Shown one piece after another: positions 5,599 through 18,941 of a stretch of DNA of 32,331 nucleotides. The stretch lies in the IMG/VR virus record IMGVR_UViG_3300025936_000018; one strand, written 5' to 3'. The notes under the pieces were generated by a model that saw only the letters and a program-made list of their open reading frames with translations, did not search any database and was not told the DNA's origin. A program made the position numbers and the translations under genes. This DNA is from a virus (lineage: Duplodnaviria; Heunggongvirae; Uroviricota; Caudoviricetes). Every line of letters starts with the position of its first letter. Position 1 is the first letter of the stretch.

Positions 5599-8346
5599 CT
5601 AGCTCGCCTGCGCGAGCTCGCGGAGCTCGGAGAACCGCTCGAGCTCGTCCTCGGAGAGCTCCGCCTCGAACACCGGGATCCCCGCGGCGACGAGCGCGAG
5701 CACCTGATCGCCGTCCGCTCCGCACGCAGCGAGCGCCTGCTGGCGCGGAACCGGGAAGCCGGGCACGTTGACCGCGAGCAGCGCTACGAGCTCACCGTCG
5801 CGCCAGTCGCCCGACAGCTTCGACCCGCGCAGGAGCCGCACCTTGTCGGCCGGCGCGTCCGGCTGGAGAGCTCCGGCGACCCAGATGCCGTGCTCGTCCT
5901 CGCCGCAGCGCACATGCGCGACGACGGTGCCGGTGTGGTCGTAGTGGCTCGTCGCAGCCGACCGGCCGAGCCGAAGGTCGGCGTGCGGCGCGTCGAGCGT
6001 GATCTGGCCGCACGCGATCCTCGAGCCGTCCTCGACGACGATCTCGCCGAGGTGGAAGTACGCGTAGTCGGTCTTGGAGTGCGGCGCCGTGCGGCACACG
6101 GACGGGAAGCCGATGTGGCAGACGCCCCACGCGGCGGCGTGTCCGCTGATCCGACCGTCGTCATCGACGGTGATCGCGGTCGGCTCGGCGAAGTTCGGGT
6201 TCTCGAACCACTCCGCCGGCGGGCGCTCCGGCACGAGGCCGGCCGCCGCGGCGGTGAGAGCGTCTCCCGACGACGACTCCGAGACCGACGCGTACTGGCG
6301 AAGGTGCTCGACGCACTCCTCGTATGTGCCGGTGAAGCGCACATCCTCGGCGTTGAGGTAGTTCGCGACCCGCCAATTCTCGCCGTCATCGGAGAGGATG
6401 TTCGGAACGAACTCGCTCTGCTCGGACTCGACCGCAGCTGCGACGACCGTCTCGGTGCACTGCGTGCACTCTTCGACCGTCCATCCGCCCTGCTGCGTGA
6501 CCGTCCAGAACGCGGGGTTCGCGCCGGCGACGAGCGAGTCGCCGACCGCGATCTTCGCGACGCCGAACGCCGGGAACGGGCAGACCGTGGTCATGCCGAT
6601 CTCGGCGCTGAGCACGACGGCGATCGTGTCCTCGTTGTAGACGTCGAGAATCGACTGGCCGACAGCGGAGCCGCCGTTGGCTGGCTGCCACTTCCCGTCG
6701 TTGTCGAGCTCGCCGATCCAGTTGCCGTCCTCGTCGAACCAGTCCGACCGGGGGCCGGTGATGTAGTCGCCGATGGCGAGGTCGACCGAGTTGCCGCGGA
6801 GCGTCTCGTCGCCGACGAGCCGGCTGATCTCCGAGCCGTACTCGCCGGTGTCGAACACGCCCTTGCCGCGGATGAGTCCCGCGGCATCGTCGCGCCAGAT
6901 GTCGTCGACGCGGCCGGCGACCTGAGCTCCGACGTGGCCGCCCTCGCTCGTCTCGATCATGGCCATGAGCGTGAGCGGCAGCTCGCGCCACGTGATCGAG
7001 CCGGGCGCGAACGCGCGCCCGTCGGAGGTCAGCTTGCCCTCCGGAGCGAGGATCGCGCTCCATGCCGTCGGTCCCTCGGGCGCTGCGGTCGATGCCGCCG
7101 GCGCGGCCGGCGTGCGCGGCGAAGGATTGCGCGCCGGCATCCTCGAGCCCGGCTGGTGCGCCTCGGGCAGCGTCGCCTCGACCTCGTCGGCGACCGCTGC
7201 GAACACGAGCCGACCGATGCCGGCAAGCTGAGCGATTCCGGTGCGCATAGCGGCGTCGCCGTCCGGCGTCTCGGGCGCGACCTCGATCATGCCCTTCTCG
7301 ACCGGCACCCACTCGGACGGGTCGGAGACGATCGGCTCGTTGTCGTCGCCGACCGTGATCGGCGCGACGTAGTAGTCGCCGTCGCCGCAGCCGATGAGCA
7401 CCTTGTCGAGCCGGATCGCCGCGTCGACGACGTGCGGCATGTAGCCGTATTCGTCTCCGTCTCCCCGCGGCAAGTCCATCTCCGCGAGCGCGTCGTTCAC
7501 GTCGCAGATCAGGTCGCGGAAGCCGTCCTCCGGCGCCCACGCGACGTCGCCGACCGCGGCCGTGATCGTCTCGGGCGCGGCGAGCTCGTCCAGCCAGAGC
7601 GCAGCTGCCATCTCGAGCAGCGACTCGTCGGCGTCGGGCCCAAGCTGCGCGTACGCGAGCGCGTGCGCAGCGGCGCGCTTCTGGACGTCGACCAGCTCGA
7701 CCGGGTTGAAGTCGCCGCCCATGCCGGCGTAGACCTCGGTGCCGTCCTCGCCGTTGGCGTAGAAGATGTCGAGTCCGTGCTCGAGCGCGAACGCGATCGA
7801 CGCCTCGGCCACGGCTTCCCACGGCGCCTTGAGCGAGTCGTAGCCGTACTTCTTCGCGGCCTTCGCGTAGTAGTCGGCGACCTTCGTCTTGATCTCGGCG
7901 ATGTCGGAATCGGCCACGTCCTTGACGCCGCCGCGCGCGCCGGAGAGCGCGCCGGCGACCGCGGTGATCCCGCCCCAGTTCGCCTGGAGCTTGCCGTCGA
8001 CCGGCTCGGCGAAGCCGAGGCCGTAGTCGTCGAAGTTCTCGCCGTCGCCGCGCTCGAGGAAGAACGCCTTCGCGTACTGCGCGTTCGGCTTCTCGGTGGC
8101 GCCGGACCACTCGCGCACCGCCTTCTCCGCTGCGGTGGCGTCCCACTTCGCGTCGCGATCGCCGAGCGTCAGCGTCGTCGATCCGGAGACGGCGAGCTCG
8201 CCGCCCGCGCGCGCCTCGCGGCGCTGCTCGAGCACGGCTACGAGGTCCGCGCTCTGCTGCGTCCGCTTGACGGGGCGGCTTCCGTGAGCGCCCGACCGGA
8301 GCGCCGACCGGCGGCGCCTCGCACCTCTTCCACGATGAGTGGCCAT
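5599..8346 (-). CDS. Capsid maturation (prohead) protease, multidomain
   Basis: GGAGGAGG SD; core APEGKLTSDGR...GGHVGAQVAGRVD...RGNSVDL (His and Ser candidates); C-terminal GHAAAWGVCH...HYDHTG...LSGDWR...AVNVPGFP block as in actinophage proteases; between MuF and capsid. Confidence 0.82.
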   Translation of the reverse strand: MATHRGRGARRRRSALRSGAHGSRPVKRTQQSADLVAVLEQRREARAGGELAVSGSTTLTLGDRDAKWDATAAEKAVREWSGATEKPNAQYAKAFFLERGDGENFDDYGLGFAEPVDGKLQANWGGITAVAGALSGARGGVKDVADSDIAEIKTKVADYYAKAAKKYGYDSLKAPWEAVAEASIAFALEHGLDIFYANGEDGTEVYAGMGGDFNPVELVDVQKRAAAHALAYAQLGPDADESLLEMAAALWLDELAAPETITAAVGDVAWAPEDGFRDLICDVNDALAEMDLPRGDGDEYGYMPHVVDAAIRLDKVLIGCGDGDYYVAPITVGDDNEPIVSDPSEWVPVEKGMIEVAPETPDGDAAMRTGIAQLAGIGRLVFAAVADEVEATLPEAHQPGSRMPARNPSPRTPAAPAASTAAPEGPTAWSAILAPEGKLTSDGRAFAPGSITWRELPLTLMAMIETSEGGHVGAQVAGRVDDIWRDDAAGLIRGKGVFDTGEYGSEISRLVGDETLRGNSVDLAIGDYITGPRSDWFDEDGNWIGELDNDGKWQPANGGSAVGQSILDVYNEDTIAVVLSAEIGMTTVCPFPAFGVAKIAVGDSLVAGANPAFWTVTQQGGWTVEECTQCTETVVAAAVESEQSEFVPNILSDDGENWRVANYLNAEDVRFTGTYEECVEHLRQYASVSESSSGDALTAAAAGLVPERPPAEWFENPNFAEPTAITVDDDGRISGHAAAWGVCHIGFPSVCRTAPHSKTDYAYFHLGEIVVEDGSRIACGQITLDAPHADLRLGRSAATSHYDHTGTVVAHVRCGEDEHGIWVAGALQPDAPADKVRLLRGSKLSGDWRDGELVALLAVNVPGFPVPRQQALAACGADGDQVLALVAAGIPVFEAELSEDELERFSELRELAQAS

Positions 8347-8428: not shown

Positions 8429-8462
8429 TTGCAACTTCCGGCAGGAGTGATATATTTATATC
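8429..8462 (+). promoter_or_regulatory. Sigma70-type promoter with overlapping palindromic operator candidate
   Basis: TTGCAA 8429-8434, 16 bp, TGa-TATATT 8451-8456; inverted repeat GATATA-TT-TATATC 8449-8462. Confidence 0.75.
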
Positions 8463-8690: not shown

Positions 8691-9304
8691 TGAGCGCCAT
8701 CGAGCTCGAGAACACCGCAGCGGCGTTCGCCGACGCGCGGAACCCGCAGACCTCGATCTTCGAGGTCCAGACGTGTTCGCGCTGTGGCGGAAGCGGCCGG
8801 TATTCCTACAACGCTTTCACGCAGGACCGCTGCTTCAAGTGCGGCGGCCGCGGCTGGACGTACACGAAGCGCGGCGCCGCTGCCGCGGCGAAGCTGACCG
8901 AGCTCCTCTCGAAGCGAGTCCGCGATCTGCAACCCGGCGATCGCATCCGGTACGCCGGCATCCCCGGCTTCTCGGGCGGCGGATGGGCCACGATCGAGAA
9001 GGTCGGCCGCGACACCGGCGAGATGGAGTTCGGCTCGCGGGTGGTCGACTTCGACTACGAAGCGAACGAGCGCTGGGGCTATCAGTGCAACGGATACAGC
9101 GCTGCCGGTGTCGATCCCGACTCGCTCGTTCGGGTCGCGCACACGGCAGACGAGAAGGCAGCCGCTCGAGCCGCCGCGCTTGACCAGCACGGAAGAGCTC
9201 CAGATCGTCTCGCCGAGACGCCTGGACGATCCAGAGACCGCGAAGCTGATTCGGGCGCAGCTGAAGAAGGCGTTCCCGGGCCAGAAGTTCACGGTCAGGA
9301 GTAG
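8690..9304 (+). CDS. Protein with DnaJ-type CxxCxGxG zinc finger
   Basis: CSRCGGSG and CFKCGGRG; last ~40 aa overlap next gene out of frame. Confidence 0.7.
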   Translation: MSAIELENTAAAFADARNPQTSIFEVQTCSRCGGSGRYSYNAFTQDRCFKCGGRGWTYTKRGAAAAAKLTELLSKRVRDLQPGDRIRYAGIPGFSGGGWATIEKVGRDTGEMEFGSRVVDFDYEANERWGYQCNGYSAAGVDPDSLVRVAHTADEKAAARAAALDQHGRAPDRLAETPGRSRDREADSGAAEEGVPGPEVHGQE

Positions 9305-9824
9305 CCGGTATTCCGGCGGCTCGAGCATCAGCATCGACTGGATCGACGGGCCGACCACGAAGCAGGTTGACGACGTGACCGCCGTCTTCGCGGGCTCGCG
9401 CTTCGACTCGATGATCGACCTCAAGACGTACAACCGGCACTGGCTCAATCCGGACGGCACAGTGAGCATCGCTTACGCCGGCGGCCAGGGCTCGACGCTG
9501 GAAGAGGTCTACGGCAGCGCGCCGACGCCGAACTCGGAGCTGGTCTCGATCGGCGCCGATCACATCATGACCCAGCGGGAGACGTCGCCCGAATGGAAGG
9601 CAGCGATCTTCGCCGCATTCGGCGAGATCCTCGGCCGCGACCTCGGCGACCCGACGGGAAGCTATTCCACGTGGGATCAGCTAGTCCCGCTGAAAGTCGA
9701 CTGGAGCGACGGGAGGCTGTACCACATGGTCGAGACCGACACGGAGCGGCTCTCGACGGTCTTTCACCAGTTCACGAGCTATCGGCAGGGCGGCGACTGC
9801 TCGACCGATGCGGTCGCATCATGA
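9180..9824 (+). CDS. LPD29-like (large polyvalent protein-associated domain) protein
   Basis: ETAKLIRAQLKKAFPGQKFTVRSSRYSGGSSISIDWIDGPT...SRFDSMID matches remembered LPD29 consensus; TTG 9180 start is uncertain. Confidence 0.72.
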   Translation: MTSTEELQIVSPRRLDDPETAKLIRAQLKKAFPGQKFTVRSSRYSGGSSISIDWIDGPTTKQVDDVTAVFAGSRFDSMIDLKTYNRHWLNPDGTVSIAYAGGQGSTLEEVYGSAPTPNSELVSIGADHIMTQRETSPEWKAAIFAAFGEILGRDLGDPTGSYSTWDQLVPLKVDWSDGRLYHMVETDTERLSTVFHQFTSYRQGGDCSTDAVAS

Positions 9825-10397: not shown

Positions 10398-11087
10398 ATG
10401 ACACGCAGAGAGAGGCTCGAGCGTAGAGCCGAGAAGAGGCGCGACTGGGCAGGAAGTGCCAGCGCGCGATCAGACGCCGCGTACGAAGCGGAGCACGCGA
10501 TCGGCGATCGCATTCCGATGGGCCAGCCGATTCTCGTCGGCCATCACTCGGAGCGGAGAGCTCGCCGCGACGTCGAGCGGATGCAGACGCTCGCGAGCCG
10601 GAGCATCGAAGAGGGCGCGAAGGCCGAGCGCCACGCAGCGGCCGCGGACAGCATCGAGCGGCAACTCGAGGTCGCGATCTTCGATGACGACGAGGACGCG
10701 GTCGAGCAGCTGCGCGCGAAGGCCGACCGGCTCGAGGCGCAGCGCGACGAGCGGAAGCGTGCGAACGCCGAGTACCGGAAGGAGCACAAGGCCGAGCTCG
10801 CCGCGATGACGCCCTACGAGCGGTCGCAGGCAGTTCCGTATCCGACCTACTCGCTCACGAACCTCGGAGCTCGAATCCGAGACGCGCGGCAGCGCGCCGA
10901 CCGGCTCGAGCGCGAGAAGGCGATGGTCGCCGCAGGCGATCGCGGCCACGGCCGGCAGATGGAGTCCCGGTACCCGGGCACCTGCGCCGACTGCGGCGGA
11001 GAGATCAGCCGCGGCGAGCAGATCGTCTGGTTCCGTCTCACGCGCGAAGCGACGCACGCGACTTGCCCGGCAAAGGACGAGTCGTGA
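10398..11087 (+). CDS. DUF3560-like protein with C-terminal Cys/His zinc ribbon
   Basis: RRERLERRAEKRRDWA...IPMGQPILVGHHSERRARRD signature; YPGTCADCGGEI...HATC. Confidence 0.82.
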   Translation: MTRRERLERRAEKRRDWAGSASARSDAAYEAEHAIGDRIPMGQPILVGHHSERRARRDVERMQTLASRSIEEGAKAERHAAAADSIERQLEVAIFDDDEDAVEQLRAKADRLEAQRDERKRANAEYRKEHKAELAAMTPYERSQAVPYPTYSLTNLGARIRDARQRADRLEREKAMVAAGDRGHGRQMESRYPGTCADCGGEISRGEQIVWFRLTREATHATCPAKDES

Positions 11088-11578: not shown

Positions 11579-11784
11579 TGGCCGCCGGCGTGCGATGCAC
11601 GGCATCCGGCGCGGAGCGCTCCGTCACGTCCGAGCAGTGGATCTCCGCCAAAGGTGCGTGCCCGGATTGCGGAGCAGAGGTCGAGTTCATGGTCCGAGCC
11701 AACGACCTCTCGCCGCGCTGCAAGGTGAAGGTCCACCGGGCGCCCGCGGGCGTCATCCCGCGCCCGTACGGAGCAGCGCCATGA
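11578..11784 (+). CDS. Small Cys-containing hypothetical protein
   Basis: TAGTG overlap at 11578; KGACPDCGAEV; stop overlaps next ATG. Confidence 0.55.
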   Translation: MAAGVRCTASGAERSVTSEQWISAKGACPDCGAEVEFMVRANDLSPRCKVKVHRAPAGVIPRPYGAAP

Positions 11785-12074
11785 TCGAGGAGCTCGAGAT
11801 GACCACGGCGCTAGGCTTCGCAGCGATGGAGACCGCGCAGTGGAACTACTTCACCGTGACGAACGAGGACGGCTCGCCGCGGCTGGTCGTGCGTCGGAAC
11901 GGGCCCGACATTCAGCTGCTCACGGCGAACGGCTGGGTCGATCGGCCGCAACTCCTGACGCGGTTCCAGGATGCCGGCTTCCTCGAGCAGACCGATCTCG
12001 CCGGCGCGCAGCGCTCGGCGACGTCGATCGGCGGCGGCCTCCAGTGGCCGCGCGAGGACCTCGCAGTTGGCTGA
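11781..12074 (+). CDS. Small protein, candidate immunity protein 1
   Basis: ATGA overlap; WNYFTVTNEDGSPRLVVRR...NGWVDRPQLL; immunity role is inference from position. Confidence 0.65.
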   Translation: MIEELEMTTALGFAAMETAQWNYFTVTNEDGSPRLVVRRNGPDIQLLTANGWVDRPQLLTRFQDAGFLEQTDLAGAQRSATSIGGGLQWPREDLAVG

Positions 12075-12321
12075 GCTCAAGATCATCGGACAGCAGGGGC
12101 CGACGCGGTTCCTCGTAGACGCGGGGAAGGTCGCGGACGGCGAGCCGAATGCTGGTCTGCCGGCGGCGCGGGTCTACGACGTCGTGACTGACTTCCTCGG
12201 CGAGCCGACGGCGATCGGCGCGATCACCGCGCACTCGCCCGGCTGGGACGAGCCGACAGCGCCGGACGAGCTGCTTGAGACTGTCCGTGAGCGCGTCGCC
12301 GCGCTGCTGCCGGCGGCCTAG
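12067..12321 (+). CDS. Small protein, candidate immunity protein 2
   Basis: TTG 12067 with GAGGA SD; MAELKIIGQQGPTRFLVDAG...HSPGWDEP; stop overlaps MuF stop in CTAG. Confidence 0.65.
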   Translation: MAELKIIGQQGPTRFLVDAGKVADGEPNAGLPAARVYDVVTDFLGEPTAIGAITAHSPGWDEPTAPDELLETVRERVAALLPAA

Positions 12322-15300
12322 TCGTTCTGGCTGTTGCCGCCGCCGAGCTCTCGGTACGTGTCGACCATGTGCCAGCGGATCTCGAGCTCGTCGAGCAACT
12401 CGCGGAGGTGCGTGCCCTCCATCATCGTCTGCTCGGAACGGGCGAGCCATTCGTCCGCCTGTTCTTGAGCTCGCGCGACGGCGTCCTCAGCCGCCGCGAG
12501 TGCGCTCGTGTTCGACGTGCCCTTGACGGCCTCGCGTAGCGCGTCGAGCTCTCGCTGCTTCTCGGCGAGGTTGTCGCGCATGATGTTCGCCATCGCGGTC
12601 GCGCCCTGGATGCGCTCCTGCTCGCGCTCGGCGGAGAAGATGACCTGGTCGATGTCGCTGAGCGCGACGCCGCCGTGGATCTGCGCCTCGGCGTATGAGC
12701 CGTACGTCATGTCCGCGACGTCGCCGTTCGCTTCGACGGGGTTCGCGCCGCCCCACCACGAAGTCAGGCTCGGATCGTTCAGCGGCGAGGGGATGATCTC
12801 TCCGTCTCGGCCCGGTCCGAGCGAGTCGATGAGCGAGAACGTCGTCCGTTCGTTCGTCTCCGGCTTGAGGTTGACGATCAGGTCGCCGTACTGCTCGACG
12901 CCGTGTGTCTCGTCGGCGGAGCCGGCGAGGTACCCGTAGATCGGCCTCTCTTCGTCCGGCAGGCTCTTCGGGTAGCCGAACATTCGCTCTTCGGCTCGAG
13001 CTCGCAGATCGGCGTCGAGCATTCCCTTCGACGTGCCGGTCTCGAACTGACTCTTGAAACGGCCTTCCTTGAGGATCTTCTCGAGCGTGTCGGTGGTGAC
13101 GCGGATGCGCACCTGCGCGTCGGCCACGGCCTTCTTGATCGACGTGAGAGCTTCGGCCTTCCACTCCTCAAGCCGTTGCGCTCGCTCCTCGGGCGTACCG
13201 ATCATCTTCCATCTGCCGCCCTGCGTCTGCGCTTGCCGCTCGGCGACGTAGTTGATGTTCTCCATCGTGCGGTCCATCGTGAGATTGTTCGCACCCGGGA
13301 CGATGTCCTGCACCCTCAGGACGCGCATGACGTCGGCGCCAACCGGAGCATCATGCGTCACGCGCTGGCCGATGCCGAACGCGCCAGCCGGGACAGGATT
13401 CTTCGACTGCTCGGCCGCCATCTCGTTCCACAGCCGAAGCCGCTCCGCCGGGTCGGTCGACAGCTGGAACGCGCGATACTGCGGGTGCAGCGACGTCTTG
13501 AGCTCGAACGTCCGCGGCGTGTGGAACTGGAGCTCGAACCGCTGCCCGTTCTTCTCGAATACGCCGTTGATCCCCTGGTAGTCGGCGTTGCCCCAATAGT
13601 TCTTCAGCTTGATCTGCGTGTAGCCGTCCTTCTCGAGCCGCGCGAGCGTCGTCTGGACGCCGTTCGCGTAGCTGCCGTCAGGGAACGTCATCGTGTAGCG
13701 GAGCGTGTCGTTGATCGACGCCGAGACCTCCGCGACGGTCGCGCTCGGATCAGCCAGCCGAGCGTCGGCGAGGTCGCCGGTGATCTTGCGGACGAGCGAG
13801 GGGTTCTCCTTGACGGCGTTCTCGAGGCCTTCCATCTTTCCGCCGGCCGTGTCCGCGATGCCAGAGAGCTCGGCGGTGACTTCCGGCTCGGCCGCAGCCG
13901 CGTCGCTGATCATCGCCTTCGCGGAATCGAGGACCTCCGGCGGGATCGGCTCGCCAGCGACCGACGCCGCGTACGCCTTCGCTTCGTCCCAGTCAGTGAA
14001 CAGACGCACCTCGGTCTCGGCCGGCGCGTTCTGCGCCATGAACACGATGTCGGGCCGGCCGTACTCCTCGAACTTCCAACCTTCCGGCGCGTACTCGTCG
14101 ACGAACTTCATCCGGCCGACAACCCGGAATCCCTCCTGCTCGTACATGTCCGGCAGGAAGCCGTCGTACGCGTCGAGCGTCGCCGCGCCTTCCTCCTGCA
14201 CCGCCTTGCGGACGGCCTGCTGGCCGGCGCCCTTGATGCCGCCCGGATTGCGGAATACGTTCTGGAGGTCGTGCTCCGGCGTGACGACGAAGCCGGACTC
14301 GCCGTCAGGCGAGATGAAGACCTTGTCCCGGGCTAGCTCTTCTGGGGTGTGGACGGTGAGGAAGCCGGGGCGGGCGTTTTCTGCGAGTGCGGAGTTGAAC
14401 GACTCGTAGTCGGTCGTTTCGGCGAAGGAAACGACGGGTCGTCCGGGTCCCGATCCGGCGGAAGGTGCCGAGAGAGGCCTGATGCCGGCTTCTGCATGAC
14501 CAGATGTTAGCCCACCGGCGTCGGTGAGCTCCTCGCAGTTGACCGGCAGGATCTCCTCTGCGGCCGGCGGCGTCCAGCCGGCCGGATTGGCCGGATCATC
14601 GGCCGCGGTCAGATGGTTCGTCGCGAGCTGCTCGAAGCGGAGCGCGGCGATGTCGCCGGCGCGCTCGAGGATCGGCTGCAAGATCGCGGCAAGCCTCGGC
14701 TCGAAGTCGTCGATGCGCTTGTGGGCGGCACGCAGAACGCGGTTGTGATGCTCGAGCGAGAAGCGCTGCTCGCCGGCCGCGTCGATGTTGTCGCCGGCGG
14801 TGTCGCTCTTCCGCTCGCCCGAGTACTCGAGCGTGCACCGGCAGTTGATCACCTCGCCGGCCTCGCCGTCCGGGTCGCCGGGGAAGCGGAGCTCGGCGCC
14901 GCCGACGTCGAACAGCCCGTCGAGTTGAACGGTCTGGCCGTCCAAGCCTTCGTAGTCCTCGTGGCGCGGATACGTGGCGCCGGGCGCGGTCATCCACGTC
15001 TTCGTCGCCGTCGCGCCGGCAACATCGGCCGCGATCTTGGCCGCGGCGAGCGAGCCGCCGTTCACAGCGCCGGCGAGCTCGGTTCGCGCGATCATCGTCG
15101 CGCGCACGTTGCTCGCCTCAGCCATGTGCGCCCGGATCGCCTTCGCCGTATCGGGAACCGACAACCCCTGCTCGTGCGCGTAGTTGATCACGTTCATGAC
15201 GTCGTCCTGCGTCGTGCGCGAGATGCCGACGATGTGCTGGCCTGCTCTCGAGATGACGTCCGCCGCGAGCGGATTCGTGATGTCCCAGGTGAGCCCGGCC

Positions 15301-16229
15301 TGCTCGAGCGCCGGCGTCATGACCGCCTTCACGAACGCCTGCCGGATCGGGTCGGTCTTGCCGCGCAGCTCCGCGGGGAGACAGAACGGTTCGGCGGCGG
15401 CGACGAGCGCGGCCGCGGTGATCGGCAGCGCTCCGGTGAACGGGATCGCGATGATCTCGGTGTCGCCGCGGACGACGAGGAGCTCGTCGAAGTGGAGCGC
15501 GTTGCCGACAGCCGACTCGGGGTAGCCATCGGCCGGCTCGCCGTCGACGTCGGTGACGGTGAGATGCGCCTCGAAGCCGTGGTCGTGCGAGTAGTCGATC
15601 TCTGCCGCGATGAGCGCTTCGCAGACGTCGGTGCGGAGCTCCACGAGCCCGCGCACGTCGGGCAGCAGAATGCCGACGCCGGGCGGGTCGAACGCGCCGT
15701 AGCCGCCGATTACGCCCTCGAGCGGCGCGTGGGTGGCTGCCACGATGCGCAGCGCGTCCACGATCGGCTCGAGCTCGCCCTCGATCTCGCCGAGATACGC
15801 GAGCGTGACGTGGAGGTTCTCCGGAGGGTCGCCGCCGGGCGCCGCGATCGCTTCAGCTTCGAGCGGCCGCGGCTTGACCGCGATCATCGTCGAGAGCGAC
15901 GTGACGCCGGGCGCCGCAGAGACGAGCGGCGGCGTCACCTCGGCGAGGTCGCTCCACTGCCACTGCTCCGGAAGCACGCCCGGAAGTCCTTCGGCCCACT
16001 CGTCGCAGACCATCGCCGGGGAGACCAGCGTGTCGAACATGCCGCAGCGCATCGCCGTGCCGGCGCCGTAGAACGAGCACGTCGCGCACGCGCGGTCGTG
16101 GTTGGCCGTCTCCCGGTAGTGCACGAGCGGCGGCAGTTCGCCCTCGCCGTCGGCGATCGTGGCAGCAGCGGCTCCCACAGGCTCGCGCAGGCCATCCCAC
16201 GCGGCCCAGACCAACTCGCGGTCGCTCAT
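12318..16229 (-). CDS. MuF-family minor head protein fused to several enzymatic/toxin-like domains
   Basis: MuF motifs RATMIARTE, TKTWMT, DGQTV, FPGDP, EVINCRC; 2H motifs LHVTL/AHLTV; RelA-like ELQFHT; YAEAQIHG; directly downstream of portal. Confidence 0.88.
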   Translation of the reverse strand: MSDRELVWAAWDGLREPVGAAAATIADGEGELPPLVHYRETANHDRACATCSFYGAGTAMRCGMFDTLVSPAMVCDEWAEGLPGVLPEQWQWSDLAEVTPPLVSAAPGVTSLSTMIAVKPRPLEAEAIAAPGGDPPENLHVTLAYLGEIEGELEPIVDALRIVAATHAPLEGVIGGYGAFDPPGVGILLPDVRGLVELRTDVCEALIAAEIDYSHDHGFEAHLTVTDVDGEPADGYPESAVGNALHFDELLVVRGDTEIIAIPFTGALPITAAALVAAAEPFCLPAELRGKTDPIRQAFVKAVMTPALEQAGLTWDITNPLAADVISRAGQHIVGISRTTQDDVMNVINYAHEQGLSVPDTAKAIRAHMAEASNVRATMIARTELAGAVNGGSLAAAKIAADVAGATATKTWMTAPGATYPRHEDYEGLDGQTVQLDGLFDVGGAELRFPGDPDGEAGEVINCRCTLEYSGERKSDTAGDNIDAAGEQRFSLEHHNRVLRAAHKRIDDFEPRLAAILQPILERAGDIAALRFEQLATNHLTAADDPANPAGWTPPAAEEILPVNCEELTDAGGLTSGHAEAGIRPLSAPSAGSGPGRPVVSFAETTDYESFNSALAENARPGFLTVHTPEELARDKVFISPDGESGFVVTPEHDLQNVFRNPGGIKGAGQQAVRKAVQEEGAATLDAYDGFLPDMYEQEGFRVVGRMKFVDEYAPEGWKFEEYGRPDIVFMAQNAPAETEVRLFTDWDEAKAYAASVAGEPIPPEVLDSAKAMISDAAAAEPEVTAELSGIADTAGGKMEGLENAVKENPSLVRKITGDLADARLADPSATVAEVSASINDTLRYTMTFPDGSYANGVQTTLARLEKDGYTQIKLKNYWGNADYQGINGVFEKNGQRFELQFHTPRTFELKTSLHPQYRAFQLSTDPAERLRLWNEMAAEQSKNPVPAGAFGIGQRVTHDAPVGADVMRVLRVQDIVPGANNLTMDRTMENINYVAERQAQTQGGRWKMIGTPEERAQRLEEWKAEALTSIKKAVADAQVRIRVTTDTLEKILKEGRFKSQFETGTSKGMLDADLRARAEERMFGYPKSLPDEERPIYGYLAGSADETHGVEQYGDLIVNLKPETNERTTFSLIDSLGPGRDGEIIPSPLNDPSLTSWWGGANPVEANGDVADMTYGSYAEAQIHGGVALSDIDQVIFSAEREQERIQGATAMANIMRDNLAEKQRELDALREAVKGTSNTSALAAAEDAVARAQEQADEWLARSEQTMMEGTHLRELLDELEIRWHMVDTYRELGGGNSQND

Positions 16230-16232
16230 GGG

Positions 16233-18275
16233 TTAGCGCCCGTTCTTCGCTGCCGCGAGGAGCCCCTCCACCTTGGCGGCGAATGTCGGCGGCAGCGGGT
16301 CGGGCCGCTCGTCATAGAGCGTGCGTGCGGCGTGGCGCTCGATCGTGTCCGCGATGGACTCGGCCGCGGTGTCGTCGCGCACGCCGAGCTCGCGGAGCAC
16401 GGCCAGCATGATCTCGTGCGTCGCGGAGACGAGCTCGAGCTCGCGCGCGCCGCCGAGCAGCCGCCGGACGGTCGTGCGTCCGAGTTTCGCCGCGACAAGG
16501 CCGTTCGGATTGCCGTCGATCAGCGCGAGCGCTTCATCGTCGCGTCGTGCGAGCTGCCGAAGGCGCGCGCCGGCGGCTTCGCGCGCGCGCAGCTGCGCAT
16601 AGACGGCCGCGCCTTCGATCGTGGTGCCGAGAGATCCGACGATCGTTTCGGTGCCCGCCTCCTGGCCTCCGGCCGGCGGTCCCGTTTGGGCCTCCGCTCC
16701 GGTCTCGGGCCCGCCGGCCGGCTGCTCGTTCCCGCTGTTCGAGACGACACCCGGAGTGGGCTCGACCGAGCCGGCGCCGACTCGCGGCACGCCGTCCCAC
16801 GCGAGAGACGAATCGCCCGTCGCGATGCCGACGATCCGTGCCCTCTCGTCCTTGGTCGGCGCGTCGTCCTCGCTGAAAGCTGTCTCGCGGCGAAGCGCCT
16901 CGTCGCCGATGACCGCCTTGTCGTGCAGCTGGATCGCGGTCTTCGTTCGGTCGGGATGGTTGATCACCTTCGTCGCGTCGTACGCGATCACGTACTTGTC
17001 CCAGTCGGCCATGTTGAGCTCTTCGCGCAGGTACGGCCCGAGATAGGCGGCCGTCAGGTCCTCCACGAATCCGTCGGCGACCGGCTGGATGTGCGCCTGC
17101 CACGTCTGGTCGTCGATGATCCAGGCGTTCCAGTGGTTCGTGTCGGTGAAGCCGAGCAGCGCCTCGACCGGCATATCGAGCGAGATCGCGAGCCGGCGAA
17201 TCGCCTCGTTGCGCAGGCCGACCTCCGGGTAAATCTGGAGCGGGTCCTGGATCTGCATGTGGTAGACGAGATCGGCGAGCTTCATCCCGTCCGGGACGCG
17301 CACGCGCAGAAGGATCGGCGCCACCGCGGCGGCGGTGCCCTCGTCGGCGATCGCCGTCGTGATCGCCTCGGTCATGTCCTCCATGAGCGGGTCCTCGAGG
17401 ATGTCCTCGTCCGGAGACGGCTCGTCGGGTCGCGTCGTGATGCGGTCGTCGATGAAGAGGAAGCCGGCCGTCCAGAGTCTCGAGCGGAGCCGCGCGCGGA
17501 TCACCTGCGTCAGAAGGACGAGCTCCTCGAGGATGTCGAGCACGCCCTCGGTCGTGGAGTCCGGCAGTGCCGAGAAGCGCGGGTGCGGCCGATGGAGCCG
17601 GTACGCGACGGCGGTGCCGACGCCGGCGGGCCCCTGGTTGTTCCCTTCCTTGTCGACGACCGGCTCGAATGAGTCGTCCGGCGCCGGGCGGAAGAGCGTC
17701 GCCGGCATCACCGGCGCCGTGAACCGCGTGTAGTTGCCGTCGAGCAGCCGGATCTCGTCGGTCGAGAGCATCTCCCACTGCTCCTGATTCGTCTCGGGGT
17801 TGATCGAGACGAAGAGGATGGCCTCGCCGACGAGGAACGCGAGCAAGCCGTAGGCGCGCTGGAGCCCGGTGCGGCCGATGCCGCCCGGATCCTTGATCCG
17901 CTCGAACGCCTCGATCACCTGCTCGTTCGTCGTCGGAATGAGGTCGCCGTTCTCGTCCTTTTCCGCGGCGAAGAGCAAGAGCTGCGAGAGCGCTCGAGCG
18001 TAGAACTGCGCTGCGAACTTGAACTCGCCGACGAGGTCGAAGTAGCCGAACGCCCGGATCTGCCACGGCATGATCAGGCGGCGCAGATAGGTCGCCTGTC
18101 CGTGGCGGACGAGCGCGCCGGCCGCGGTCATGTTCTCGCGATAGGACTCCGGCAAGTCCTTCTCGACGAGAGCGAGCTCGGCCTTCAGCGCGTCATGTGT
18201 CGGGCCGACGCGATGCGACATCACCACGCGAGCGCGCGGCACGGGCGAACGACGGCGGCGGCGGAAGAGGCCCAA
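16233..18275 (-). CDS. Portal protein
   Basis: WQIRAFGYFDLVGEFKFAAQFYARALS, RLHRPHPR...DS, IRRLAISLDMPVEALLG...NHWNAW resemble actinophage portals; position upstream of MuF/protease/capsid. Confidence 0.82.
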   Translation of the reverse strand: MGLFRRRRRSPVPRARVVMSHRVGPTHDALKAELALVEKDLPESYRENMTAAGALVRHGQATYLRRLIMPWQIRAFGYFDLVGEFKFAAQFYARALSQLLLFAAEKDENGDLIPTTNEQVIEAFERIKDPGGIGRTGLQRAYGLLAFLVGEAILFVSINPETNQEQWEMLSTDEIRLLDGNYTRFTAPVMPATLFRPAPDDSFEPVVDKEGNNQGPAGVGTAVAYRLHRPHPRFSALPDSTTEGVLDILEELVLLTQVIRARLRSRLWTAGFLFIDDRITTRPDEPSPDEDILEDPLMEDMTEAITTAIADEGTAAAVAPILLRVRVPDGMKLADLVYHMQIQDPLQIYPEVGLRNEAIRRLAISLDMPVEALLGFTDTNHWNAWIIDDQTWQAHIQPVADGFVEDLTAAYLGPYLREELNMADWDKYVIAYDATKVINHPDRTKTAIQLHDKAVIGDEALRRETAFSEDDAPTKDERARIVGIATGDSSLAWDGVPRVGAGSVEPTPGVVSNSGNEQPAGGPETGAEAQTGPPAGGQEAGTETIVGSLGTTIEGAAVYAQLRAREAAGARLRQLARRDDEALALIDGNPNGLVAAKLGRTTVRRLLGGARELELVSATHEIMLAVLRELGVRDDTAAESIADTIERHAARTLYDERPDPLPPTFAAKVEGLLAAAKNGR

Positions 18276-18868: not shown

Positions 18869-18941
18869 TAGCGGAGATCGGACTCGAACCGATGACCTCC
18901 GGGTTATGAGCCCGGCGAGCTACCAGCTGCTCCACTCCGCG
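18869..18941 (-). tRNA. Initiator tRNA-fMet (CAT), CCA not encoded
   Basis: CGCGGAGTGGAGCAGCTGGTAGCTCGCCGGGCTCATAACCCGGAGGTCATCGGTTCGAGTCCGATCTCCGCTA: C1 unpaired, A11-U24, three G-C pairs closing the anticodon stem, TTCGA T-loop. Confidence 0.95.

Follow-up and report, generated by a model that had tools for sequence, protein, structure and literature searches.

An internal alarmone-synthetase module in the polyvalent MuF head protein of a high-GC phage, and a candidate inhibitor encoded on the opposite strand

The DNA described here is a stretch of 32,331 nucleotides (the window) from the IMG/VR record IMGVR_UViG_3300025936_000018, a virus of the Caudoviricetes. Its G+C content is 65-73%. 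An open reading frame (ORF) on the minus strand, 12318..16229, encodes P0001, a protein of 1303 amino acids with a strong third-position G+C bias (GC3 0.89). This is the whole gene of a polyvalent MuF head protein, and it lies directly downstream of the portal protein gene on the same strand (16233..18275; phrog_776, E=2.4e-85). The element of interest is a RelA/SpoT homologue (RSH), or small-alarmone-synthetase (SYNTH), domain at amino acids 764-959 of P0001 (13353..13940, minus strand). A plus-strand gene block of ~3.6 kb (about 8.7-12.3 kb) runs towards the MuF gene and fills the space between it and the next head gene. It includes a small gene, g2, whose product probably inhibits the RSH domain as its cognate partner.

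The domain is a well-preserved RelA/SpoT-type small alarmone synthetase of the clade formed by SaEAS, Apk1-Tas1, Apk2 and the C-terminal part of XopAD. A preliminary description of this DNA, made from the sequence alone, had placed such a domain at 13370-13930, nearly the limits given by profile matches. The five motifs named in it, for which no strand was stated, are all present on the minus strand within amino acids 806-918 (13476-13814): VKENPSLVRK (aa 806-815, 13785-13814), NDTLRYT (aa 840-846, 13692-13712), YQGING (aa 884-889, 13563-13580), FELQFHT (aa 898-904, 13518-13538) and LHPQY (aa 914-918, 13476-13490). The catalytic, Mg2+-binding pair is Asp841 (13707-13709, minus strand) and Glu899 (13533-13535, minus strand). 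K807, S811 and K815 make up the K-x3-S-x3-K motif, and E899 and Q901 the ExQ motif. In the phmmer alignment with SaEAS the active-site residues D121, R124, K154, N169, E182 and Q184 correspond to D841, R844, K874, N888, E899 and Q901 of P0001, and an alignment of 48 relatives shows no variation at K807, K815, D841, R844, E899, Q901 or H903. The arginine normally found two residues before the first lysine is replaced, as had been noticed, by Ala805 (13815-13817, minus strand).

Homology to proven synthetases is extensive. A phmmer search of the PDB sequences found SaEAS (8VX3) at E=2.2e-18 over the full domain length, and an exhaustive library search returned 3457 relatives at E<=1e-3, with 2180 at <=1e-10; the match is therefore far beyond chance. 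The family profile finds SaEAS at E=1.9e-46 and Tas1 at E=1.6e-5, and similarity to SaEAS and Apk1 together with common active-site residues places the domain in the EAS/Apk clade. In NCBIfam the C-terminal part of the XopAD effector model matches at E=2.5e-31; the suggested check against RSH profiles failed in Pfam, a point taken up below. Kinship with the MuF-fused Apk2 toxins was borne out. With the toxin domain of a pneumococcal phage Apk2 the domain shares 36% identity; its tblastn matches among phage records include MuF 'minor head proteins', both from pneumococcal prophages and from Aaphi23; and its carrier is a MuF protein whose gene adjoins the portal gene.

The fold, on which the preliminary description had staked its assignment, was predicted by AlphaFold2 (AF2) from the 48-relative alignment with a mean predicted local distance difference test score (pLDDT) of 96.8. 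The model has the central antiparallel sheet and flanking helices of a SYNTH domain. Its top Foldseek match in the PDB is again SaEAS 8VX3 (E=7e-14, template-modelling score, TM, 0.82-0.85), followed by Tas1, RelP, RelQ, CapRel, FaRel2, SpoT and RelSeq; the matches listed are RSH synthetases.

The domain had been described as lying inside MuF. It is instead a separate module, the fourth of five, situated neither in the MuF domain nor at the C-terminus of the protein. The order, with all coordinates on the minus strand, begins with a 2H (LigT-like) phosphoesterase domain (15546..15890, aa ~114-228), which matches Pfam 2_5_RNA_ligase2 (E=1.2e-8) and LigT_PEase (E=5.3e-6), both above the cut-offs. 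The MuF core, a head-morphogenesis domain like SPP1 gp7, follows (14790..15359, aa ~291-480; phrog_2468, E=3.3e-36), with a Pfam Phage_Mu_F score of 28.3 bits, just below the cut-off of 29.6. The third module is a GNAT-fold acetyltransferase-like domain (13980..14447, aa ~595-750; AF2 pLDDT 88.8; phrog_2563, E=2.3e-13). This region has no Pfam or NCBIfam match, and the Foldseek matches listed for aa 595-750 in the PDB are all acetyltransferases, nearly all of GNAT type. Behind the RSH domain come a DUF3626 domain, SopF-family and ADP-ribosyltransferase-like (12630..13229, aa ~1001-1200; Pfam DUF3626 46.6 bits, cut-off 27), and then a helical tail. DUF3626 is carried by the Salmonella effector SopF, and by tblastn this region of P0001 matches the 'capsid maturation protease and ADP-ribosyltransferase' of mycobacteriophage Tierra. 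With four unrelated effector modules on a MuF anchor, and with its gene beside the portal gene in the head module, P0001 has the make-up of a polyvalent protein.

The nearest relatives of the RSH module are likewise MuF fusions with extra toxin domains, such as Zeta, ADP-ribosyltransferase (ART) or DUF3626, and their architectures include 2H-MuF-RSH, 2H-MuF-Zeta-RSH-DUF3626 and MuF-RSH-RSH-ART. In two MuF proteins, P0003 (L008, 4001-6742) and P0006 (L009, 237-3692), the RSH domain occurs twice in tandem, with an ADP-ribosyltransferase exoenzyme domain behind the pair. RSH and DUF3626 co-occur in P0052, P0090, P0093 and P0145, in which an ad hoc MuF profile detected no MuF, and these two modules may travel as a cassette. 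Another RSH-bearing giant protein, P0008, has Pfam intein-splicing and LAGLIDADG matches. In the MuF/Apk2-like head protein of Aaphi23 (L003, 1234-3636) an insertion of ~300 amino acids, intein-like by eye, splits the MuF 'NCRC' motif.

By codon-position G+C there is no minus-strand gene after the MuF gene; a minus-strand ORF overlapping the MuF gene's end (11920..12450) has neither GC3 support nor a family match and was not accepted as a gene. The opposite-strand block encodes an LPD29 protein (9108-9824, plus strand) and a DUF3560 protein (10398-11087, plus strand), and the sole sigma-70-like site of the region (8429-8456) lies just upstream of it. The contig of the relative P0002 has the same inverted block, with DUF3560, after its MuF gene. 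Downstream of the block a 915-amino-acid protein (5599-8346, minus strand) has head-maturation-protease and portal-fusion PHROG matches; at its position relatives encode an 888-amino-acid protein or one containing DUF5925/AAA.

The block ends in two small ORFs. The first, g2 (P0159), encodes 97 amino acids at 11781..12074 on the plus strand, with possible starts also at 11799 or 11826. It is convergent to the MuF gene and is recognised by its GC3 signal, its homologues and a complex model. The second, g1 (~84 amino acids, 12067..12321, plus strand), overlaps the end of g2 by 8 nt, as also in L011, and its stop interlocks with that of the MuF gene. The P0005 locus, with DUF3626, also has a g1 homologue, and the P0007 locus has neither; g1 is probably the partner of the DUF3626 domain rather than of the RSH domain.

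Homologues of g2, by comparison, keep company with RSH domains. They adjoin RSH-bearing MuF genes in L001, L004-6, L014 and the P0002 contig, where the homologue is the adjacent 72-amino-acid gene P0164. The homologue in the P0005 locus is 50% identical to g2. In the P0007 locus RSH is the sole C-terminal cargo and a g2 homologue the sole small neighbour. Weaker matches were found at the loci of the MuF-RSH-ART proteins P0003 (L008) and P0006 (L009), in one case forming the C-terminal end of a 2H protein. Three new g2 homologues served as a blind check; of the two with available DNA, one is convergent to a MuF-RSH giant gene and the other to an RSH fragment. The latter (L013, 6001-6589) faces a fragment of 118 amino acids that covers no more than the C-terminal half of the RSH profile. 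The L013 neighbours are GmrSD, Vsr and DNA methylase genes, and the site looks like an orphan immunity gene with a toxin relic in a defence island. A further homologue, P0167, has a terminase and an integrase as neighbours on a bacterial contig.

A complex of the RSH domain and g2, predicted on alignments built in this analysis, scored 0.91, compared with 0.31 for the best of three controls; in the benchmark the mark was reached by 58 of 80 solved complexes and by 2 of 110 mismatched pairs. Model runs agreed in at least 97% of contacts, with a partner pLDDT of at least 79. Among the interface residues are D841, N888 and E899 (positions 82, 129 and 140 of the domain), so that the model places g2 over the active site. 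The preliminary description had looked to adjacent small ORFs for rescue of toxicity. That expectation is in part sustained, since g2 is a probable partner by predicted binding, though one encoded on the opposite strand.

The source record is a virus of 96,219 bp with direct terminal repeats, rated complete. A six-frame search of the genome aimed at tyrosine and serine integrases found neither, and on this showing the phage appears to lack the temperate or prophage setting in which Apk2/MuF polymorphic toxins are encoded. Its host is probably an actinomycete. Cultured actinophages are only distant kin (portal identity ~30% by tblastn), and no close cultured relative was found when 10 kb were compared with phage records by megablast, the only match being a tRNA-Met stretch. 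A tRNA-Met gene (18869-18941, minus strand) lies just upstream of the portal operon and is ~93% identical over 45 nt to the tRNA-Met of large Mycobacterium phages.

Taken as a whole, the locus is best explained, and we think probably, as an injected alarmone-synthetase module of a polyvalent MuF head protein that is silenced by g2. The MuF module would anchor P0001 at the portal inside the capsid, and the protein would exit together with the DNA when a cell is infected. Once in this new host, the RSH module would pyrophosphorylate a purine nucleotide at its 3'-OH with ATP as the donor, yielding (p)ppApp and/or (p)ppGpp. Such a reaction would drain ATP, impose an alarmone state and aid takeover of the host. 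Late in infection, while P0001 is being synthesised, or after the pulse, the g2 product would cover the active site and silence the enzyme. The apparently virulent setting and the candidate inhibitor genes on the opposite strand speak for a part played in infection as such, and against one in competition mediated by prophages.

Several points weigh against this explanation. That the domain is enzymatically active is something we infer, and Ala805 removes one adenine-stacking arginine, which could weaken or alter the binding of ATP. No Pfam family at all matched the isolated domain (aa 760-960) at E<=10, and RelA_SpoT (PF04607) had no match in the genome in six frames either. Six-frame searches for HD, HD_4, MazG and NUDIX hydrolases found none, and the phage thus has no detectable alarmone hydrolase, whereas the six-frame profile search recovered the RSH domain itself as a positive control. 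The complex model may lean in part on memory of the solved Tas1-Tis1 complex. The g2 family bears no significant resemblance to the Apk2 immunity proteins of phiARI0462, Aaphi23 and L007 (hhalign probability 1%, E=0.053), and its profile finds nothing meaningful among PDB sequences, Tis1 included. A Tis1-like identity by sequence is accordingly not claimed for g2, which matches no Pfam, NCBIfam or PADLOC family. The published discussion acknowledges that packaging and ejection of MuF cargo have not been shown for toxin-bearing MuF proteins. Finally, the acceptor nucleotide cannot be read from the sequence, because SaEAS, Apk2 and AaEAS yield different products although their motifs are similar.

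Given injection and silencing by g2, a more elaborate scheme is conceivable, and it is put forward tentatively. A virulent phage would inject a multi-enzyme head protein, and the alarmone pulse would be short and self-limited, then stopped by a dedicated inhibitor, g2. The toxin-immunity pairs RSH-g2 and ART-g1 would have been turned from a competition weapon into a timed device for host takeover. The opposite-strand block ending in g2 may be transcribed early from a host-type promoter, and Ala805 could tune the affinity for ATP.

The purpose of MuF-fused toxins for the phage is openly debated in the literature, and an active enzyme need not be injected. It might instead work in the cell that produced it or once that cell has lysed, whether as an extracellular synthetase of the SaEAS kind or, like other polymorphic toxins, as a toxin between bacteria. 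This debate, and the fact that the closest solved relative, SaEAS, is an exported extracellular enzyme, lend the idea some weight. However, the RSH module is fused to MuF, its gene adjoins the portal gene in the head module, and a candidate intracellular inhibitor gene is predicted nearby. The lack of a detected integrase makes a role in prophage-based competition unlikely. We consider action without injection improbable, and delivery with the DNA remains the preferred course.

As to the product, the preliminary description held that specificity cannot be read from the sequence, and we agree, since relatives with the same signatures differ. Among the characterised relatives Apk2 makes only (p)ppApp and AaEAS only (p)ppGpp, while SaEAS of Streptomyces albidoflavus makes both (PMC12691689). 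The published adenosine-type (Apk) signatures are RYT, GxN and YH, for which P0001 has RYT, GIN and FH. Exchanging them left the specificity of Apk2 unchanged, and SaEAS has them yet prefers guanine-nucleotide acceptors.

Between the two activities that had been offered, alarmone synthesis and tRNA modification, the former is favoured, a free-nucleotide product being much more likely than a tRNA product. A tRNA 3'-CCA pyrophosphokinase like CapRel, FaRel2 and PhRel2 would block translation and release no free alarmones. Such an enzyme would have the same fold, and CapRel and FaRel2 are indeed among the Foldseek matches, with E from 5e-4 to 4e-3. An HD-type hydrolase gene adjoining the relative P0122 is also compatible with a tRNA target. 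Small alarmone hydrolases can also strip the 3'-pyrophosphate from tRNA. In sequence and profile searches, however, the domain reaches SaEAS and Tas1 only, with neither CapRel nor FaRel2 and no PADLOC model at E<=1, so that it stands nearer to the nucleotide-producing synthetases than to the tRNA-modifying toxic small alarmone synthetases (toxSAS). Apk-type signature motifs are present, and the closest characterised relatives all make free nucleotides. We hold a tRNA target to be very unlikely, and return to a synthetase of free alarmones.

Ala805 raises the question of a crippled enzyme. SaRelP stacks the donor adenine between two arginines, Arg78 and Arg112, and holds the phosphates with Lys80, Ser84 and Lys88 (PMC5794853). 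Ala805 stands at the position of Arg78, and the arginine pair is incomplete in P0001. To judge from its alignment with SaEAS R124, listed as ATP-binding, R844 is probably the counterpart of the second stacking arginine. In 182 related domains (from the best 150 representatives) the equivalent position holds arginine in 142 cases, lysine in 16, alanine in 8 and serine in 2, while five further residues each appear a single time and 7 domains have a gap there; the residues seen besides arginine include K, A, S, N, V and T. Alanine is found also in the nearest relatives, P0002 (61% identity) and P0007 (50%). Within this subclade Ala805 is the sole strong departure at a well-conserved column, Met773 being shared too but in a variable hydrophobic column, and the subclade comparison revealed no compensating changes at conserved columns. 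In an Ala-bearing relative, P0122, the next genes encode a protein of 81 amino acids and then an HD_4-like hydrolase of 145 amino acids. This is an Apk2-type arrangement, and it argues that the alanine variants are live enzymes in need of neutralisation.

The loss of an arginine kept by most of these domains might nevertheless have left a nucleotide-binding or structural module, or an enzyme with a different donor, but this has little probability, given that the remaining catalytic and phosphate-binding residues are all kept, that the position varies across the family and is the single strong departure of the subclade, that P0122 retains its immunity-plus-hydrolase locus, and that the phage keeps a dedicated, predicted active-site binder in g2, which would be pointless for a dead enzyme.

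A live synthetase under the control of g2 would be significant in several respects. The locus presents an Apk2/EAS-type synthetase in a phage that appears to be virulent, in company with three further enzymatic modules and with candidate inhibitor genes on the opposite strand. The g2 genes form a new, unnamed candidate inhibitor family that travels with one RSH subfamily, and the Ala805 domain is a natural variant without one of the donor-adenine arginines. Inhibition by g2 and the Ala805 variant are both open to standard toxicity-rescue and nucleotide assays.

Among known systems the nearest in sequence and structure is SaEAS (8VX3; PMC12691689), which has identical active-site residues and comes from a high-GC actinomycete. 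It is, however, a Sec-secreted single domain that retains the arginine (R70) and has no immunity protein, whereas the domain of P0001 is a module of a virion protein with a predicted inhibitor. Rel-like (EAS) domains also occur in XopAD-domain proteins (PMC12691689). Tas1/Apk1-Tis1 of Pseudomonas aeruginosa (6OX6) is a homologous SYNTH domain blocked by a small immunity protein, just as g2 is predicted to lie over the active site of the P0001 domain. That toxin is delivered by a PAAR protein of the type VI secretion system, and g2 has no detectable similarity to Tis1.

As a multi-enzyme polypeptide anchored on MuF, P0001 resembles the polyvalent proteins of Iyer et al. (2017; PMC5512222). The MuF fusions that this article lists as delivered with DNA include modules of RelA/SpoT, 2H, zeta-kinase and ART type, the last being a hub domain of such proteins; as far as consulted, the article neither names the five-module combination of P0001 nor describes dedicated convergent inhibitor genes.

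Apk2 shares with P0001 the MuF module, a homologous SYNTH domain, the RYT, GxN and aromatic-His signatures, the position of the gene after the portal gene, and a small protein inhibitor encoded nearby (predicted in the present case). The pneumococcal Apk2 locus has the published layout of portal, MuF-toxin, 69-amino-acid gene and metal-dependent phosphohydrolase. P0001 is not a textbook Apk2, because its RSH domain is internal (aa 764-959 of 1303) rather than C-terminal, with DUF3626 and a helical tail behind it, and is one of several enzymatic modules; because its phage has no detectable integrase and no Aph/HD hydrolase; because the donor-adenine arginine is alanine; and because Apk2 loci have a co-directional, Tis1-like immunity gene, often with the hydrolase, in contrast to the convergent g2, a candidate from an unnamed family with no detectable sequence similarity to it. 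Both Apk2/EAS-type synthetases and polyvalent MuF proteins were already known, and the P0001 locus is a variant of these.

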